IMG/VR virus record: IMGVR_UViG_3300002056_000074
Length of the DNA stretch: 64,000 nt
Strand: one strand, 5' to 3'
Source: a virus
Shown: in pieces, positions 10,973-45,325 of the stretch
Layout of the letters: every line of letters starts with the position of its first letter
Position numbering within the stretch: position 1 is the first letter of the stretch
Translations under genes and position numbers: made by a program
The notes under the pieces: generated by a model
The model's input: the letters and a program-made list of their open reading frames with translations, nothing else
Told to the model about the DNA's origin: nothing
Databases searched by the model: none

Positions 10973-11009
10973 ATATAAGACTCAAAGTTAAACTACTGGT
11001 TAAAGTGGA

Positions 11010-11041
11010 AGACTATCCTAGAAAACTGTCTAATTCTGTGA
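11010..11041 (-). promoter_or_regulatory. Possible class II-type promoter (half-site only)
   Basis: TCACA (11041-11037), 21 nt, then TAGTCT (11015-11010). Confidence 0.35.
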
Positions 11042-11074
11042 TGCTATCTAGCTTCTAACTATTTTTTGTAAAAA

Positions 11075-12136
11075 CTATGAATCACCGAAAATTGTATTTA
11101 ATTGATTGTTGACAACTCTAAAAGTTGTTCGTTTGCTAAGACTTTTTAAATTTCTAGAACCAACATAAGTACATGCTGATCGGATACCACCCAAAATATC
11201 TTGAATTGTATTATCTAAGGATGGTTTGACTGGAATTAAGACACGCTTGCCTTCTGATGCTCTATATGTTGCAACACCATTTGCATGTTTATTCATGGCT
11301 TCTTTAGAAGACATTCCATAAAACTCCATATACTCACCCCCCTCATGCCGAACAATGGGTAATCCGGTTTCTCGATGACCAGCAAACATACCACCCATCA
11401 TAGTGAAATCCGCACCTGCTGCGAAAGCCTTTACAACATCGCCCGGAATGGTCATTCCACCATCAGAACATATATGGCCCGATAGCCCATGTGCAGCATC
11501 AGCACATTCAATTGTTGCCGTAAGTTGTGGCAAACCCACTCCAGTCATTTTTCTGGTGGTGCAAACACTACCATTTCCCAGCCCACATTTTACTATATCT
11601 GCCCCAGACATGATCAATTGTTCTGTTGCTTCTGGGCTAACAACGTTGCCCGCCATAATAACAGTGTGAGGAAACATATCCCGCAACCTAGAAACAGCAG
11701 AGTGAAATTTTTCAGTATATCCATTGGCATTGTCCATACAGACATATGAAATATCCATCTCACCAAACAACCTATCATTGATTCGCTCTAAACGATTGAA
11801 TTCCTCATCCGAACTTCCCATCGTATAAAACACTGGAACTCTAGTATCAGACTTCAAATACAATGAATTGAAATAATCAACATATTCATCTTCAGTATAA
11901 TGCTTATGAAGTGCTGTGCTTATATTATACTTAATTAGTGCATCTGCAAATTCAAATGTTGCCACTTGATCCATATTAGCAGCAATGATTGGGATATGGT
12001 TGTGCCATTTAGCACCACTATTTACGAAAGTAAAATCTCTCTCAACATTAACCTCAGATCGTGATGAAAGTTTTGATCGCTTTGGTTGAATTAAAACATC
12101 ACTAAAATCTAGTGCTGGTTCTGTAATAAGTCGCAT
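11075..12136 (-). CDS. guaC: GMP reductase
   Basis: LDFSDVLIQPKRSKLSSRSEV, IPIIAANMD, ANGY, GSVCTTR, FYGMSS, YRASEGK, LSKRTTF. Confidence 0.95.
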   Translation of the reverse strand: MRLITEPALDFSDVLIQPKRSKLSSRSEVNVERDFTFVNSGAKWHNHIPIIAANMDQVATFEFADALIKYNISTALHKHYTEDEYVDYFNSLYLKSDTRVPVFYTMGSSDEEFNRLERINDRLFGEMDISYVCMDNANGYTEKFHSAVSRLRDMFPHTVIMAGNVVSPEATEQLIMSGADIVKCGLGNGSVCTTRKMTGVGLPQLTATIECADAAHGLSGHICSDGGMTIPGDVVKAFAAGADFTMMGGMFAGHRETGLPIVRHEGGEYMEFYGMSSKEAMNKHANGVATYRASEGKRVLIPVKPSLDNTIQDILGGIRSACTYVGSRNLKSLSKRTTFRVVNNQLNTIFGDS

Positions 12137-12142
12137 TCGGAC

Positions 12143-12162
12143 ATCCCCCGTTATTGGGGGAT
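12143..12162 (-). promoter_or_regulatory. Hairpin masking the guaC SD; resembles a single type I-E repeat
   Basis: ATCCCCC-AATAAC-GGGGGAT ends 6 nt before the ATG. Confidence 0.6.
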
Positions 12163-12189
12163 TATATCATTTCTATTATGATGTGTCCA
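12161..12189 (-). promoter_or_regulatory. sigma70-type promoter of guaC
   Basis: TGGACA-17 nt-TATAAT with an extended TG. Confidence 0.7.
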
Positions 12190-12316
12190 CGACTTTTGCC
12201 GTTGTTTTGTAGTCGGCCCCCTGTCTTCGCCACTACATACCAACCAAAAATGGTTGATGACTGATCTCTAGCGTGTTTACCACGTAATATTAATCAATCT
12301 TACCCAATTATTTCGT
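12189..12316 (-). ncRNA. Candidate structured RNA (four adjacent hairpins) from a late promoter
   Basis: Stems at 12259-12299, 12239-12258, 12208-12237 and 12189-12202, several with G-U pairs on the minus strand; no sizeable ORF; TATAAATA upstream. Confidence 0.5.
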
Positions 12317-12321
12317 TATTC

Positions 12322-12329
12322 TATTTATA
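12322..12329 (-). promoter_or_regulatory. T4-type late promoter TATAAATA
   Basis: Exact match, overlapping the stop of 12325..12558. Confidence 0.6.
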
Positions 12330-12558
12330 CCTTAGAAAATTTTTCTACGGGAAAACTTTTTTTCTTTGAATTTGTTTTACCGTCTTCAACACCAGAATTA
12401 TATGCAGCAACAACAGCCTCGCGCACCAATTCATCCAATTCCTTGAAAAAATGTTGTGTTGGTAATGGTTGCCTTGATGAAATAGATTGCAGGCGTGAAA
12501 GACCATCCTCAAGCATGGTAGCTTCCAAAACTTCATTAACAATTTTCTTTTTCATCAC
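12325..12558 (-). CDS. Hypothetical protein
   Basis: GGAG SD and its own promoter. Confidence 0.6.
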   Translation of the reverse strand: MMKKKIVNEVLEATMLEDGLSRLQSISSRQPLPTQHFFKELDELVREAVVAAYNSGVEDGKTNSKKKSFPVEKFSKV

Positions 12559-12583
12559 TAATCTCCAACAGCTAAGAGGTGTG

Positions 12584-12612
12584 ATTATACTACGTGTTTG
12601 TTATATAAGCAA
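12584..12612 (-). promoter_or_regulatory. sigma70-type promoter
   Basis: TTGCTT-17 nt-TATAAT. Confidence 0.65.
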
Positions 12613-12625
12613 GTATTATTTCAAA

Positions 12626-13291
12626 TCAAAGATCGTAAACTGACTTCCCTTCAAAATCTTTTGGCTTTGGAAGTTTTGCCCAATCAATATCAACTACATC
12701 ACCAGCACGATTTTTTACTGTTGCAAAAGATCTACCATCCTTTTTAGTGTTTGGATTTGTTACTAACCAGACTTGACCATTCTTACGAATTACATCACCC
12801 TTTTCTGGTCCCATTTTAGCCCCTAGATCGGTAGGTTTTTTGGTTTCCATTTGGGAAAGTAATAATGACACCCAAATTTCATAATCCGGCCTTGACATCC
12901 CAGCTGGGATTTTTGGTAGTTTTCCATTTACTAATTTAGCAACACCAAATTCCTTATTAATTTGTGCTAACAATCCAGAGTTATCCTTCCCACCTTTAAC
13001 AGATGATTCCTTATTCGCATTACCTCTACTACTCTTACCACGTGCTACTGCCCTTGCGCGAGCTTCACGTTCCTTCTTTTTTTGACTGGAACCAAAAAAT
13101 TCATTTAGTTGCTCAGACTCACTCAATTCTTCATCATTAATAGTTCCCTGAATAACAAAATAGCTATCTAGTGAGAATCGTTTTTCTGGCAACATAGATT
13201 CAATTTCGGAAGCCTCTTCAACTGCAGCTAGGGCGAGGGCATCTTCTTCATTATTTTTAATAGTTTTATTGATATCCTTAATAAAATTCAT
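12626..13291 (-). CDS. Late hypothetical protein, possibly an internal head protein
   Basis: Late promoter upstream; acidic N-terminal third ending LSE/LNE, followed by a basic region. Confidence 0.6.
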   Translation of the reverse strand: MNFIKDINKTIKNNEEDALALAAVEEASEIESMLPEKRFSLDSYFVIQGTINDEELSESEQLNEFFGSSQKKKEREARARAVARGKSSRGNANKESSVKGGKDNSGLLAQINKEFGVAKLVNGKLPKIPAGMSRPDYEIWVSLLLSQMETKKPTDLGAKMGPEKGDVIRKNGQVWLVTNPNTKKDGRSFATVKNRAGDVVDIDWAKLPKPKDFEGKSVYDL

Positions 13292-13323
13292 ACTTACTAC
13301 TCCAATAAATATTATCTATATCT

Positions 13324-13331
13324 TATTTATA
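13324..13331 (-). promoter_or_regulatory. Late promoter TATAAATA
   Basis: Exact match in intergenic DNA. Confidence 0.65.
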
Positions 13332-13362
13332 AGAATTTAAATTATTGTTAAATATTTTATTG

Positions 13363-14496
13363 CTATAGATTTCGTACTCCCTTATAGACTTGTTTGACAA
13401 CCGGAAATCTTAAATTTCCATCAGGAGTTCTTCCAAAGAATTGTATGGTTGCTTGGCTTCCTCTATATTCTTCGAACTCCTCCAAAAACTCGGCTAAAAA
13501 TTCTCTGGTTCCAGTCATTGTTGCGGTTGCCGTATTCCCATCAGCCATCGTAACATCAATTGTTTTTGGTAATCCAGAAAAATTACCATTACCAAGTGAA
13601 TATGATTCTATAATACCCTCTTCATCATCAAATGTTTTATATTTCAGTAATGCATTAGAGCGCTTCCCCTTAGCATATGGCTCTGGAAGTCTAATTATAG
13701 ACCCTTCATATCCCTCAGACAAATAAAGACTGTGGAAATTATCACACTCATCCTCGTTTTGTATTTTGTCAGTCTGCACAAGAACAAGTTTTTTCATCGG
13801 ATAGTTGCGGATTGAAAATAAAACATCAAGCTCTTGAGTTCGTTTTGGAAATGGTTGGGTTGCCACAGAACCCTCAGCAATATCATATATGTGGTATTCA
13901 ATTTTTTCGGCAGATTCCTTTATATCTTCAATAGTTGGCTTTGTTTTGCGAACCAATGAAATTAATTTATTGAAGTCAGCTTTGAGGTGATGATTATATA
14001 ACTCTCCATCAAGTACAATATCTGGATACATCCCAAAAAAATCTTTTAACTCTTCCATGATATGGGGGACTGCAACAATTTCTTTTCCCGTTCTAGAAAA
14101 TAAACCATGTTTACTGGCAATAAGTCTTACACCATCCAACTTCGGCTGAATCATTACATCAACCCAATCAATTTTATTTTTTCTCTTCTCATAATCAACA
14201 GCAAGCATTGGCTTGAAAGTTTTGAACGAGTCAACATCATCAATACTTTCATGATAATCAACATCTAATTTTTTCTTATATTGTGCTTTAACCTCAATAA
14301 GTGCTTGCTCCTCACCTGTAGTCTCATTTAATTTTCCAATATTTTTTCCGGAAGCAACAGTCCATTCAGAAGTAACTAAATTACCTTCATGGATACCAGC
14401 AATAGTCCTATACTTATCACCATCAAGTTCCATACGCCAAGATCGAATCTTACCAGTGCTATCTTTTTTGTAAAGGGTTGGAAATATCTTATTCAT
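13363..14496 (-). CDS. ATP-dependent DNA ligase
   Basis: KPMLA, QPKLDGVR, LDGELY, YHIYD, GYEGSIIR, LLKYK, LRFPV. Confidence 0.93.
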   Translation of the reverse strand: MNKIFPTLYKKDSTGKIRSWRMELDGDKYRTIAGIHEGNLVTSEWTVASGKNIGKLNETTGEEQALIEVKAQYKKKLDVDYHESIDDVDSFKTFKPMLAVDYEKRKNKIDWVDVMIQPKLDGVRLIASKHGLFSRTGKEIVAVPHIMEELKDFFGMYPDIVLDGELYNHHLKADFNKLISLVRKTKPTIEDIKESAEKIEYHIYDIAEGSVATQPFPKRTQELDVLFSIRNYPMKKLVLVQTDKIQNEDECDNFHSLYLSEGYEGSIIRLPEPYAKGKRSNALLKYKTFDDEEGIIESYSLGNGNFSGLPKTIDVTMADGNTATATMTGTREFLAEFLEEFEEYRGSQATIQFFGRTPDGNLRFPVVKQVYKGVRNL

Positions 14497-15264: not shown

Positions 15265-16410
15265 TTATCCTACAAATTTGAATTCAATATTGTTAATCAT
15301 TCCACCAGAATTGTTAATCGCATCCTCGATTTGGGCTTCTGTAAAAGTCACATATCTAGCAGCTTCTGCAGCATCAGTATAATAAAAAACTCGGGGTGGA
15401 TATGTGCTTAAATCAGTCACCTTCAGTCGTCCAACATTTACTGGCGGTAGTGCAGTTGGTTGACTTGGGAGTGATGATCCATAAGAAATTGATGTTTCAG
15501 GACGCACATAATAGCCGTCATCTTCATCATCTTCATCATCTTCATCATCTTCATCATCTTCATCATCTTCATCTTCATAATTTTCAACATACAGATCACG
15601 AAGATCAAAATCTTCATCATCTTCATCATCTTCATCATCCATGTTAAGCTGATCATAATCATATGTACCATAATCTGATACCAGACCCTCTATGCGCTCA
15701 TCTTTCCAATCAGTAAGCTCTCGCAAAACTTCATATCGACACGCTCTACCCTTGCTATTATTGTAATCCGATGGAATAGACACAACATCTCGTGGATTAA
15801 TTTTTAATACCACAACACGCTGACCAGAAAAATGTGGGAGATAATCATATGAACAGAAGTGAAGACCTGTAGAACACGTTTGATCCTTATCTTCATTCAC
15901 TGCATTGCGTGGCATACTGACTACTGAACCAATGGAATTATCCATTGTTCCTGTATAAACATCTGTATAATCATGACTGATTCTCTTATATGCCAGAAAA
16001 TGACCATCAGAAGTAATTGGAAGTTTTCCATGCTCCAAAAATCCATACAATTCAGAAACTGCTCGATATGATGTATTATCCATCAAGTTAACCAAAAAAT
16101 TTTCCAACGAAGAAATATCCAGTCCATTGGAAGACATATCAATCATTCGTTCTGTTAAGGTATTGTCAATTTGATTCCCATCAAAATGGAATATACCATT
16201 CTCGATAGTAAACCGTCCATTTTGTGAACGATAAACGTAATCTATCAATTTAGATTTAACATCTAAAATATCGAGAATTTCAGTATAGCGACCCTGAGTT
16301 GCTAGTGTAGCAATCTTTGAATATTGTGGGTGATTAGTCTCAATGGTTCGCTGCGAACCATCTGAATCGAAATAAATCGATACGCCTGTGCTAGTGATAA
16401 TGTATGACAT
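15265..16410 (-). CDS. rIIB: rIIB-like protein
   Basis: ELYGFL..LPITSDGHFLAYK, VSMPRNAV, CSTGLHFCS, VVSIPSDYN..KGRACRYEV; follows rIIA. Confidence 0.85.
   Translation of the reverse strand: MSYIITSTGVSIYFDSDGSQRTIETNHPQYSKIATLATQGRYTEILDILDVKSKLIDYVYRSQNGRFTIENGIFHFDGNQIDNTLTERMIDMSSNGLDISSLENFLVNLMDNTSYRAVSELYGFLEHGKLPITSDGHFLAYKRISHDYTDVYTGTMDNSIGSVVSMPRNAVNEDKDQTCSTGLHFCSYDYLPHFSGQRVVVLKINPRDVVSIPSDYNNSKGRACRYEVLRELTDWKDERIEGLVSDYGTYDYDQLNMDDEDDEDDEDFDLRDLYVENYEDEDDEDDEDDEDDEDDEDDGYYVRPETSISYGSSLPSQPTALPPVNVGRLKVTDLSTYPPRVFYYTDAAEAARYVTFTEAQIEDAINNSGGMINNIEFKFVG
15518..15577. repeat. (TCATCTTCA)n repeat encoding a poly-D/E tract
   Basis: 9-bp periodic tract; a second shorter tract lies at 15611-15639. 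Confidence 0.85.
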
Positions 16411-16464: not shown

Positions 16465-18786
16465 TTAGTCTTGATTTGCTTGTTCAACCATTTTAATGTA
16501 TTCAGTAACCATTTGCAAGCTTGATGGTTCAGTTATATCAAAGTTATATGACAAATTTTGAAGTAGTGGGTATTTTTTACTCGCGGCTTCAACAAGTTTG
16601 TGATATTCAGAATCGATATCATCTGTGTTTACATGTGGATCTACATCAATATTAAGAGTAGAAAGATAATTTTCACAATATATCAAATCTGAATCTAAAT
16701 CATCGAGATTGATTTTTGCATTATACTTCTCATTAACAAAATCGAATGCCTCACCCATTGTAGTACCAGAAAGATCAACATTTGGTAATCCCAATAACTC
16801 ATGAATAATACCAGAAATATAATTAAATCTGTAATCAATATTATCTTGAAGTGTAGCGAAATTCTTATTTTTGATTGCAAATTCTCGTACCATAGTTCTT
16901 ATGTGATCTTCTTTCTCTTCTACTTCCGTATTAACAACATCAAATATATTGACCCAATTAGAAGCTTTATCAAACTTCTTAATATCAGCAGCAGATACAC
17001 CATATACAGAATCCAAACCAAGATCAGTATCAGAAACATTATTATATACATTCAATAATTTCTGCATATTACTACTCCCAACCACAGGTTTGTATATCTG
17101 CCTCCCTTTAGTGCTACTACCCATAAAGGCCCGCTTTCCACCCGCAAAAAAGAAATATACGCCACCTTGAGAGAAATCAAATTCTGTATTAACCACTAGA
17201 TTACCATTAGTAGTATAACCAAATACTGTCCCACCCATAGCTTGAGCACCTGAAGATGTTGCTCGTGGTTTACTTGGTGCTGGAGCGAGTGTGCTGGAGC
17301 GAGTAATATCTGCACCACCCAACATAGTTCTCGCAAGTTCAATACGCTCTTCCAATTCAATCGCTGTCAAATTCTTAATATCTGGAATTGACAGTACCAC
17401 ATTATAGTTTGTAGTAATATTGAGATAATCTTCTTTAACTTTTGCAATACCACCACGAGCCTCATCAATTATATAAAACTTATAATCTATATTGCCTGCA
17501 ATTGATGCGGATGATACGGTTTTAACATTACGAATCTTGAGACCACTTGCGCCTCTTCCATAATACTCATCCAATGCAGATGCTGCGAATTTGTCTCTAT
17601 AAGTTTTAGTACCCAACTGCTTGCGGATGTTACGATTCCAAGAAATCCCCCATGAATTAACGGTCATGTAATTCGGCAGTTGCTTGTAGGCTTCACAATC
17701 AACCGCATTCAAATCAAGACTTCGGAAGAAAGCATCATTGCGATTAAATACATCATTGTAAAGATAATTAACCGTCTTATAAACAGAATCATTATGTTCA
17801 AAATTTTCAACCAATGTTGTTACAATTGAATCAAATTTTGTATACATCTCAGTGATGCGAGCAGCAAATGATTTTAGTGTGTGTTCGTTATACTTCAACT
17901 CCTCACGGTTTGCTGTAATTCGCAATGCACCGATATCAAAAATGAATACGATATCATTGGCATAATTCTTATAGAATTCCATCGCCTCAATAGTCAAATA
18001 CTGTTCTGTATTATCGATGATTTGTTCCTTATTAACCGGATAGGGAACTTGTCCATAAACAGCACCAATTTTGATGTTTGAATATCGATTAGAATCGCTT
18101 GCCATGAACCATTTACCGTCTTCATTCAAAGCAGATTCCTTAGCATCCCTAGCATAACTGTAGAGATTCTCACTATCATAAGAACCAATATTGAGTACAT
18201 TGGGCTTAACTTTGAAATATGCCAGATACCAAGAAACTGCCTTCAGAAAACGCTCTCCCTCTTCAGAATTAATGCGAACCTCAAGACCATTAGGTTGATC
18301 AGTAATATTTTCGGCCATCAATGCTACTGATGGAACACCATTCTCATTAACAAACACGGCATATTTGTATTCTACACCATTGAACCAAGATGTAACCTGA
18401 TAATTTTGTGTGTATGAAAAGGGTGTTTTTGAACCAAGGCCCATCGCACCAATGAAATCATCACTGGTATCTTTTGTGGACTCAAAATAGGTAGAATAGA
18501 GGCCCAACACCTGATCGTGAGAAAGGCCAGTGCCATAATCACGAATATAAAAATACGGATCAAGACGTGATGGGATATGGATGTCAAAGGGCTTATCAGG
18601 ATTTCCTGCTGCTACATGCGAATCATACGCATTTGCAGACAATTCACGCACAACCGCATTAACAGAATCAGTATAGAGACCAGAGCTAAGAATTTCAAAC
18701 GCTTCAGCACTCGCCTTAATCTGCAATTGTGATTCAACTGACACACCACCACGAATAACGGGCTGCTTTTCAGTATGGAGTTTCAT
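16465..18786 (-). CDS. rIIA: rIIA-like protein (GHKL ATPase N-terminus)
   Basis: LYTD...VVRELSANAYDSH, IRDYGTGL, STK...IGAMGLGSKTPFSY, TANREEL. Confidence 0.88.
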   Translation of the reverse strand: MKLHTEKQPVIRGGVSVESQLQIKASAEAFEILSSGLYTDSVNAVVRELSANAYDSHVAAGNPDKPFDIHIPSRLDPYFYIRDYGTGLSHDQVLGLYSTYFESTKDTSDDFIGAMGLGSKTPFSYTQNYQVTSWFNGVEYKYAVFVNENGVPSVALMAENITDQPNGLEVRINSEEGERFLKAVSWYLAYFKVKPNVLNIGSYDSENLYSYARDAKESALNEDGKWFMASDSNRYSNIKIGAVYGQVPYPVNKEQIIDNTEQYLTIEAMEFYKNYANDIVFIFDIGALRITANREELKYNEHTLKSFAARITEMYTKFDSIVTTLVENFEHNDSVYKTVNYLYNDVFNRNDAFFRSLDLNAVDCEAYKQLPNYMTVNSWGISWNRNIRKQLGTKTYRDKFAASALDEYYGRGASGLKIRNVKTVSSASIAGNIDYKFYIIDEARGGIAKVKEDYLNITTNYNVVLSIPDIKNLTAIELEERIELARTMLGGADITRSSTLAPAPSKPRATSSGAQAMGGTVFGYTTNGNLVVNTEFDFSQGGVYFFFAGGKRAFMGSSTKGRQIYKPVVGSSNMQKLLNVYNNVSDTDLGLDSVYGVSAADIKKFDKASNWVNIFDVVNTEVEEKEDHIRTMVREFAIKNKNFATLQDNIDYRFNYISGIIHELLGLPNVDLSGTTMGEAFDFVNEKYNAKINLDDLDSDLIYCENYLSTLNIDVDPHVNTDDIDSEYHKLVEAASKKYPLLQNLSYNFDITEPSSLQMVTEYIKMVEQANQD

Positions 18787-22012: not shown

Positions 22013-22044
22013 TATCGAATGTATCTCTTTTAAGTGTTGGAATA

Positions 22045-22081
22045 AAATCCATCTGATTCTGTCGCGGAATCAGATGGATTT
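22045..22081 (-). terminator. 15-bp perfect inverted repeat (terminator, attenuator or processing site)
   Basis: AAATCCATCTGATTC-7 nt-GAATCAGATGGATTT, with a U-rich tail on the minus strand. Confidence 0.55.
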
Positions 22082-22088
22082 ATATTTC

Positions 22089-44203: not shown

Positions 44204-45227
44204 ACCCTTTAGTTGTTAATTGTGCATCTACAGTTGGGGTGACTGTTGATGATGACATTTGTGGCAAAATAGTAAATGTCTTATTTCCACCAATCGTTTG
44301 CGATGTAGATCTATCAATAAAATTCGAAGTATTTACAGATTGATCATCAACATATCCCTTAGTAGCCAAGTGGCGATCATTAGTTGGATCTGTATTGGAT
44401 GACATTATTGGCCAATTGGCGGTTGAAAATGTTTTAACACTTAAAATTGTTTGTGGATCATTCAAAGTAACAAAATCGGTTGAATCAACCACTAATGAAT
44501 CAACATAACCTTTAGTTGTTAATGTTTGATCATTGTTTTGTGATGTAGTTGGAATTCCAAATACTGGCTTATTCACTGAAATACTATCATCTAATAAAAA
44601 AATATTAGTATGATCTGTACTAGTAGTATGTTGGTGTCTTATTAAAAGTGAATTACCCACATCCTCTATGCTTGCTTTGAGATCACCTACTCTCTGAAAA
44701 AACATCGCAGGATTTGAGGATGATGAGTCTATTATTAACTTGGGACTCGTATTTTCAATTTTTAAATCATTGGTAATTGTTCCACCATTAAACGGTGGGC
44801 TAATATTTGCGGCGATTTCAGTATCAACGTATCCCTTATTGATTAAATCATTATCATCCACAATAGAATTAATCGCGGAAGTCTCCATTCTCACTGGTGC
44901 AGCTGAAAGTATAAAACTCTCAACGTCTGTACTAATACTGTCTGTAGATACAATTCCCTTAAATTTTGTATTATCTGAAAACGTCTTAACGCCACCAACC
45001 AATTGATTGGTATTAACAGTAACAAAGTTATTAGATAAGAAAGATTCTGTAGGAACAGGTTCCCATGTATTTGTCGAATCCCAAACAAACGCCTGATCAA
45101 GATCAGTATCATATACTAGAGTAGCAACTCTTTGGGGTACAAATAATAATCGCTCAGCCGTTGTGTAATGAGCTAAACTAAAACCCGTTTCACTATATGA
45201 TTCACCCTTCAGTTCAAACTCTGACAT
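44112..45227 (-). CDS. Tail-fibre-like protein, N-terminal fragment
   Basis: Same repeats; ends mid-repeat at QTIGGI. Confidence 0.7.
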   Translation of the reverse strand: MSEFELKGESYSETGFSLAHYTTAERLLFVPQRVATLVYDTDLDQAFVWDSTNTWEPVPTESFLSNNFVTVNTNQLVGGVKTFSDNTKFKGIVSTDSISTDVESFILSAAPVRMETSAINSIVDDNDLINKGYVDTEIAANISPPFNGGTITNDLKIENTSPKLIIDSSSSNPAMFFQRVGDLKASIEDVGNSLLIRHQHTTSTDHTNIFLLDDSISVNKPVFGIPTTSQNNDQTLTTKGYVDSLVVDSTDFVTLNDPQTILSVKTFSTANWPIMSSNTDPTNDRHLATKGYVDDQSVNTSNFIDRSTSQTIGGNKTFTILPQMSSSTVTPTVDAQLTTKGYVDGEFEKSVNLSTSQTIGGINIINISTKQ

Positions 45228-45257
45228 CTACAGTCTCCACCATCCACATATTAACTT

Positions 45258-45265
45258 TATTTATA
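45258..45265 (-). promoter_or_regulatory. Late promoter TATAAATA
   Basis: Exact match upstream of the fibre gene. Confidence 0.65.
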
Positions 45266-45276
45266 TATTTTAATAG

Positions 45277-45312
45277 GGAGTTCTCTCCCACCAATAAGTG
45301 AGAGAGAACTCC
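45277..45312 (-). terminator. Intergenic hairpin (terminator or stabiliser)
   Basis: GGAGTTCTCTCTCAC-TTATTG-GTGGGAGAGAACTCC with one G-U pair; no clear U-tract. Confidence 0.55.
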
Positions 45313-45325
45313 ATGTAATTAAAAA

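Follow-up and report, generated by a model that had tools for sequence, protein, structure and literature searches.

In bacterial and phage mRNAs, 3' stabilizing stem-loops and Shine-Dalgarno (SD)-like stabilizers, that is, non-coding hairpins or purine tracts, prolong the life of the message; such stabilizers usually consist of a single hairpin or a short tract and show no conservation at the level of families. The leaders that harbor purine riboswitches (guanine/adenine, 2'-dG, xanthine, ZTP, PRPP and ppGpp ykkC) are ORF-free, structured stretches that precede purine genes. Phage T4 produces the RNAs rnaC and rnaD (species 1 and 2), which are small, structured and without known function. In addition, the T4 genes e, soc, 49 and I-TevI are subject to translational locks, where the internal promoter is a late one (PMC3014915).

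The locus analysed here is part of a 64-kb stretch of viral DNA (hereinafter, the window) from an uncultured jumbo phage with T4-like features that carries its own CRISPR-Cas system and whose nearest cultured relatives, by comparison of the helicase, are XacN1, Xoo-sp13 and RAS14 (about 38% amino acid identity). A preliminary description of this DNA proposed that the gap upstream of guaC, the GMP reductase gene, encodes a new structured RNA composed of four stems, either a late non-coding RNA or a nucleotide-sensing leader. The first part of this interpretation stands, in that the gap contains a real and probably new structured RNA that has no Rfam match and is kept in a second phage lineage; the nucleotide-sensing guaC leader does not. 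The best explanation, to which we assign a probability of about one half, is that the element is a functional, uncatalogued structured RNA of about 100 nt (12208-12306, minus strand) that is not tied to guaC. As a motif, this orphan RNA is new and has a narrow distribution, its general kind being a familiar one, and its functional module would comprise a single-stranded UGGGUAA sequence and, after it, P1 to P3, three hairpins that abut one another (Table 1).

Table 1. Genes, predicted signals and RNA helices in and around the structured element; positions are those of the window.
Feature	Position	Strand	Details
rIIA	16465-18786	minus	
rIIB	15265-16410	minus	
ATP-dependent DNA ligase	13363-14496	minus	
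221-aa ORF, unknown	12626-13291	minus	
Small conserved ORF	12325-12558	minus	77 aa from GTG, 76 aa from ATG 12555
TATAAATA, T4-type late-promoter box	12322-12329	minus	overlaps the stop codon of the small ORF
UGGGUAAGAUU, 5' motif, 11 nt	12296-12306	minus	UGGGUAA single-stranded, GAUU opens P1
P1	12259-12299	minus	8-bp conserved basal helix and variable apical part
P2	12239-12258	minus	8-bp hairpin directly abutting P1
P3	12208-12237	minus	6 bp, one-purine 3' bulge, then 3 G-C pairs
P4	12189-12202	minus	5-bp hairpin, window only
Sigma-70-type guaC promoter	12161-12189	minus	TGGACA, 17-nt spacer, TG-n-TATAAT; consensus match
SD-masking hairpin AUCCCCC/GGGGGAU before guaC	12143-12162	minus	adjoins the element, separate from it
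guaC (GMP reductase, IMPDH/GMPR family)	11075-12136	minus	Pfam PF00478, E 2.6e-66; phrog_9582, E 4e-106

The gap between the small ORF and guaC (12137-12324) contains no ORF, and its GC content of 0.404 is the highest among the 18 intergenic gaps of at least 60 nt in the window, the other 17 being in the range of 0.14 to 0.35; on both counts, the preliminary description was accurate. It also placed the four stems correctly: they are present in both the minimum free energy (MFE) structure and the centroid structure obtained with RNAfold for the gene strand (-38.1 kcal/mol), and the fold is more stable than shuffled controls, as the description had required of it (z -4.88, with 0 of 200 shuffles as stable). 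The opposite strand folds less well (z -2.43). The core of the element alone reaches z -4.57, and the whole gap z -5.8 against a background mean of -0.7 (sd 1.45).

P1 is formed by GAUUGAUU (12299-12292) and GAUCAGUC (12266-12259), with an apical stem CGUG/CACG (12284-12281/12275-12272) that is seen in the window only, and P2 by AUCAACCA (12258-12251) and UGGUUGGU (12246-12239). In P3, UGUAGUGGC (12237-12229) pairs with GCC (12217-12215) and ACUACA (12213-12208), with G12214 bulged out and a purine-rich loop of 11 nt that has GA at its start and a G-run at its end. P4 joins ACGGC (12202-12198) with GUCGU (12193-12189), and its final base is the first base of the -35 box of the guaC promoter.

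Strong structure as such is not unique to this gap, given that three other gaps in the window show z <= -4.6 on the gene strand. The stretch 45007-45325 is also strongly structured on the gene strand (z -4.6), and a 110-nt piece of it (45211-45320), which includes the TATAAATA box preceding the gene that starts at 45227, has a folding energy of -35.6 kcal/mol despite a GC content of only 35%.

Past the hairpins P1 to P4, the sequence continues with AUC, AUG, AAAAC and GGACA, respectively, so that there is no U-tract after any of them, and no terminator-like site is present on the minus strand in 11000-13500. An intrinsic (Rho-independent) terminator was accordingly dropped as a candidate. In another part of the window, the 76-nt gap 22013-22088 contains a long hairpin of equal stability on the two strands (z -5.0 and -6.0), which is followed by a U-run and is probably a bidirectional intrinsic terminator, which indicates that canonical terminators are in use elsewhere in this phage.

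A guaC-anchored scan of IMG/VR yielded two loci, and one of these, L001, contains a second member of the family. L001 is a 43-kb fragment, and the same sequence is found on a 302-kb JGI contig (L004). The gene order is the same as in the window, namely, ligase, unknown gene, small ORF (47% identical) and then guaC, which a 108-aa ORF separates from the element. The UGGGUAAGAUU motif and the first three hairpins recur in L001, right after the stop codon of the small ORF. The window sequence alone was used to build a covariance model (R1); in a search of 81 kb of related DNA, this model had a sole other match, L001:2506-2599 (reported again as the identical L004), at E 0.024, a value that refers to 162 kb of search space. 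This match lies in the syntenic gap, on the right strand and 25 nt past the stop codon of the small ORF; the window element starts 18 nt past it.

When folded alone with RNAfold, the L001 sequence adopts the same three hairpins, with a P1 of 7 bp, a P2 of 8 bp that nearly abuts P1, and a P3 in which a one-purine 3' bulge separates 6 bp from 3 G-C pairs, with a 13-nt purine loop of the form GA...G-run. The stability of this fold is only modestly above that of shuffled sequences (z -2.0). P4 has no counterpart in L001, and L001 has an extra GC hairpin between the stop codon and the element.

Judging from the alignment of the two sequences, what the window and L001 keep appears to be structure, not sequence. 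The coding DNA that flanks the gap is about 68% identical between the two phages, and UGGGUAAGAUU is the only identical 11-nt block; BLASTN of the window against L001 aligned nothing in the gap besides this 11-mer. All 48 scorable pair cells contain standard pairs, both partners having changed in 9 pairs and a single partner in 2, these counts being derived from two distinct sequences and an alignment fitted to the structure model; slid controls gave 0-1 such changed pairs. In P1, two pairs are changed on both sides, one is changed on one side and none is broken. P2 has two pairs changed on both sides, and its core CAAC/GUUG is kept in sequence and does not covary. The greatest turnover is in P3, where 5 of the 9 pairs are changed on both sides, with the character of the bulge and the loop kept. 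RNAalifold recovered all three helices, with a covariation term of -3.15 and the register of P2 shifted by two pairs (6 of 8 shared).

Several lines of search were pursued for known families and for additional members. Rfam 15, including the curated riboswitch classes, gave no matches at gathering thresholds in the 64-kb window and none overlapping 12189-12321 even at E up to 10, in agreement with the earlier remark that the element is not a recognised riboswitch motif, and ARAGORN detected no tRNA or tmRNA genes in the window. BLASTN against 50,697 phage records returned a match to the guaC coding sequence only; the small ORF had no tblastn match in these records, and scans of IMG/VR, JGI metagenomes and GTDB genomes with a profile of the small ORF recovered the L001/L004 lineage only. 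Two DNA-pattern scans of IMG/VR produced 6 and 76 stretches, among which only the contig of L001 passed the model. The covariance model R2 gave no new match in six ligase-anchored loci, no match in L002, L010 and L009, each searched over the whole record, in 21 further T4-like IMG/VR records or in T4, XacN1, Xoo-sp13 and RAS14, and no second copy in the window. The only sequencing runs listed are DNA runs of the probable source sample, and their contigs show no variants. The conservation in relatives on which the preliminary description had made its proposal depend is thus found in one other lineage (L001/L004), with no further members.

The small number of members has to be weighed against the pattern of changes between them. 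If the element had no function, being either hairpin-rich intergenic DNA that is alike by chance in two related phages or a decaying remnant, one could account for the existence of two members only, for the weak z value of L001, and for the failure of the model to match anything in about 30 further phage records. A chance match in a single syntenic 130-nt gap, on the right strand, is nevertheless very unlikely (E 0.024 for 162 kb), and nine double changes without a broken pair, at about 68% coding identity, are unexpected under neutral drift. We consider the absence of function quite unlikely.

All non-Watson-Crick pairs are G-U pairs on the gene strand, as had been stated initially in favor of the minus strand, and the sense strand folds 7 to 11 kcal/mol better than the antisense strand (-33.8 vs -23.0 kcal/mol in the window and -23.2 vs -16.1 kcal/mol in L001). 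Together, these one-strand G-U pairs and the difference in energy point to the folded element acting as an RNA of the gene strand. The same observations bear on the alternative under which the inverted repeats are a DNA-level element, namely, operators for a dimeric phage or host regulator of the adjacent promoters. Such a role is compatible with the near-perfect palindrome of P2, in which the half-site core CAAC...GTTG is conserved, and with the location of the element just upstream of promoter-like sites in both phages. However, the imperfections are all G-T on one strand, an RNA signature; the arms of P3 are almost fully replaced and still complementary (the five doubly changed pairs above); and the downstream -35 box overlaps P3 in L001 but is located 19 nt past P3 in the window, all of which makes operators a very unlikely explanation.

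Additional shared features were sought in the two sequences. There is no micro-ORF common to the window and L001: a 33-codon frame (L001:2510-2611, starting with MGKI...) spans the whole element in L001 and stops after 5 codons in the window, so that a conserved micro-ORF was rejected, and the L001 frame is unlikely to be coding. A cloverleaf or closing helix was also rejected, with 5 bp in the L001 MFE structure and only 3 bp possible in the window. A conserved pseudoknot linking the P3 loop to other loops or junctions was not found by inspection. The junction between P1 and P2 in L001 (2534-2556; UAAUCCC...GGGGAUUGU) resembles the SD-masking sequence of the window at 12165-12141 (UAAUCCCCC...GGGGGAUGU). 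This junction could form an alternative hairpin to P2, and the likeness may reflect coincidence or a shared repeat-like module.

The relationship between the element and guaC hinges on the sequences that separate them. The guaC promoter, which is located between the element and the gene, matches 11 of the 12 positions of the sigma-70 consensus and has an extended -10 box (TGGACA-17-TGnTATAAT). Transcription from this promoter is predicted, from the consensus match, to start near 12154, just past CCCCC, so that the promoter-derived guaC RNA would lack both the element and the anti-SD arm. In an RNA that starts at 12154, there is no SD hairpin and most of the G-run of the SD sequence is unpaired. 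By contrast, in read-through RNA, the AUCCCCC/GGGGGAU hairpin forms with pair probabilities of 0.998-1.0. This hairpin is best read as a putative translational lock of the T4 type, a reading that accounts for CCCCC without the element. Only a read-through or late RNA would carry the element and guaC on one molecule.

The preliminary description had correctly located GGGGG (12221-12217) and CCCCC (12160-12156) and suggested that the two form an expression platform: as a nucleotide-sensing riboswitch, the element would respond to its ligand by letting the GGGGG of P3 pair with CCCCC, thereby freeing the guaC ribosome-binding site. Apart from the presence of both runs, this proposal is compatible with the conservation of the G-run in the P3 loop, with the masking of the SD sequence in read-through RNA and with the TATAAATA box, from which a late guaC transcript would have a 185-nt leader containing the element. 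The platform fails on energetic grounds and on comparison with the relatives. The lock forms with a probability of about 1.0, and forcing the GGGGG:CCCCC pairing changes the energy from -66.0 to -51.4 kcal/mol, at a cost of 14.6 kcal/mol; moreover, G12217 is itself paired within P3. The intervening promoter would yield an unlocked mRNA that does not include the element. In L001, the P3 loop still has its G-run, but there is no C-run anywhere between the element and guaC, another ORF intervenes, and guaC is preceded by a promoter-like site of its own and by no lock. In L002, a complete record of 312 kb, guaC (54% identical) belongs to a purB-purA-guaC array with a 1-nt gap in front of guaC and has no leader, and the element is absent from the entire record. 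Furthermore, the shape, three independent abutting hairpins, lacks a multi-helix junction, and likewise a conserved pseudoknot, in which a ligand could be enclosed; the Rfam search at E up to 10 gave no riboswitch match; and exclusive pairings that are conserved together with the regulated gene, the hallmark of an expression platform, were not found. Given the promoter, the stable lock, the costly pairing, the layout of L001, the evidence from L002 and the lack of a ligand-pocket shape, the element is probably not a nucleotide-sensing switch for guaC, and ligand-induced pairing of GGGGG with CCCCC appears extremely unlikely. The 108-aa ORF of L001 may be a later insertion, in which case the element could ancestrally have been located directly before guaC.

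With respect to the purine genes themselves, L002:544-4053 contains the genes for adenylosuccinate lyase, adenylosuccinate synthetase and GMP reductase in direct succession, with the ends overlapping or 1 nt apart, which by gene content would make a full module for the conversion of GMP to IMP to AMP. The L002 record has terminal repeats.

How the element is transcribed can be predicted from the signals that surround it. The TATAAATA box noted in the preliminary description is present on the minus strand at 12329-12322, 15 nt upstream of the conserved 5' motif and 185 nt from the next start codon. On the coding strand, four other boxes of the TATAAATA type precede gene starts in the window by 24-38 nt, and nine minus-strand gene starts have a TAAATA core 25-44 nt ahead of them; overall, the TATAAATA motif is not enriched (8 found vs 9.9 expected). 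In L001, ATTAAATA precedes the 5' motif by 29 nt, so that a TAAATA box is common to both phages. Upstream of the small ORF, there is a TTGCTT-17-TATAAT site that was read by eye and is not listed by the promoter scan. We infer that the element is transcribed from this site as the 3' UTR of the small gene; the absence of a terminator between the two implies that the element is made together with the mRNA of that gene. In the window phage, the element could also be transcribed separately, from the TATAAATA box, and a discrete late RNA, the other half of the original interpretation, is plausible on this basis. Transcripts that read through into guaC would be held untranslated by the SD-masking hairpin, and guaC itself would be expressed from its own promoter downstream of the element.

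In L001, a promoter-like sequence (2579-2617; TTGAGG-18-TG-n-TAGAAT) extends from inside the P3 loop to 6 nt before the ATG of the 108-aa ORF, and this ORF has no visible SD sequence. Given these two features, the mRNA of the 108-aa ORF may be leaderless.

The distribution of the element follows that of the small ORF. Both genomes with the small ORF, those of the window phage and L001, have the element, and it is absent from L002, the one accessible guaC-bearing relative without a detected homologue of the small ORF; on this pattern of co-occurrence, the element probably belongs to the small upstream gene, not to guaC. The small protein has no match in Pfam, PHROG or PDB, its atlas hits gave no information on its function, and its AF2 model is a low-confidence two-helix hairpin (mean pLDDT 64). 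Five relatives of the small ORF were identified in a protein database of ENA and Logan assemblies (P0004-P0008). In L004:2467-2485 (L001 about 2262-2280), the sequence CUCCCU...AGGGAG can fold over the ribosome-binding site belonging to the small ORF and, as read from the sequence, would be another SD-masking hairpin.

As regards the mode of action, the free variation of the helix sequences suggests that the helices are likely a scaffold. This scaffold would display two conserved purine-rich strands, UGGGUAA and the SD-like loop of P3 (GA...GGGG), whose most likely binding partner would be a protein or the 30S subunit, not a metabolite, and the tight hairpins might also shield the 3' side of the transcript from exonucleases. 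This specific binding mechanism is put forward with less confidence than the functional RNA itself, at less than even odds. As a seed target, the complement of the 5' motif occurs at chance level only, and the search identified no binding partner for the element.

Protection without a specific partner has to be considered as well: the element might be a passive module at the mRNA end that protects the mRNA of the small gene from 3' exonucleases or serves as a spacer or insulator. Such a module would be expected in the interval that runs from the small ORF's stop codon to a promoter-like site serving the next gene, where the element is located in both phages; it would tolerate the observed free variation of stem sequences and loop sizes, and the GC hairpin that L001 adds right after the stop codon would fit as well. 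A passive role leaves unaccounted for the conservation of the exact 11-nt single-stranded motif, of the bulged purine and of the P3 loop (GA...GGGG), and the hairpins lack a U-tract even though the phage has U-tract terminator-like hairpins elsewhere; we view it as a possible but unlikely explanation.

A more far-reaching version of the functional RNA is that the two sequences represent the first members of a novel class of regulatory RNAs in jumbo phages, which would capture a factor with the SD-like loop and UGGGUAA and in this way reprogram translation or counter defence. We regard this as a long shot. If it is true, the RNA would be discrete, either driven by the late promoter or derived from the 3' UTR; the captured factor would be the 30S subunit, an RNA-binding regulator or a defence protein, of the host or of the phage; and relief of the guaC lock, in trans or in cis, would be possible in the window phage. 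At about 100 nt, the element would be a small and concrete target for pull-down and deletion work.

Compared with the 3' stabilizers of bacterial and phage mRNAs, the functional RNA proposed here is more elaborate, with three helices, a bulge and two single-stranded motifs kept at about 68% coding identity. With the purine riboswitch leaders, it shares an ORF-free, structured location before a purine gene, with a sequestered ribosome-binding site adjoining it, but it differs from them in having no Rfam match, in consisting of three independent hairpins, in the promoter before guaC and in the non-conserved linkage to guaC. The riboswitch-like look, that is, hairpins next to a metabolic gene along with a masked ribosome-binding site, is therefore misleading: synteny and the promoter show no tie to guaC. 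The SD-masking hairpin resembles the T4 locks in that it hides the SD sequence on read-through RNA and is bypassed by transcription that starts past its 5' arm, and differs from them in that the internal promoter is of the sigma-70 type, not late. The three-hairpin element is not part of this lock, the hairpin of which is located 46 nt downstream of P3. Finally, T4 rnaC and rnaD are similar to the element as small structured RNAs of T4-type phages without known function, but they are encoded inside a tRNA cluster, whereas the window has no tRNA genes, and their folds are different, with no match of R2 to L173:4909-5172 even with filters off. The element would extend this short list of orphan phage RNAs with one from the genome of an uncultured, XacN1-related jumbo phage.
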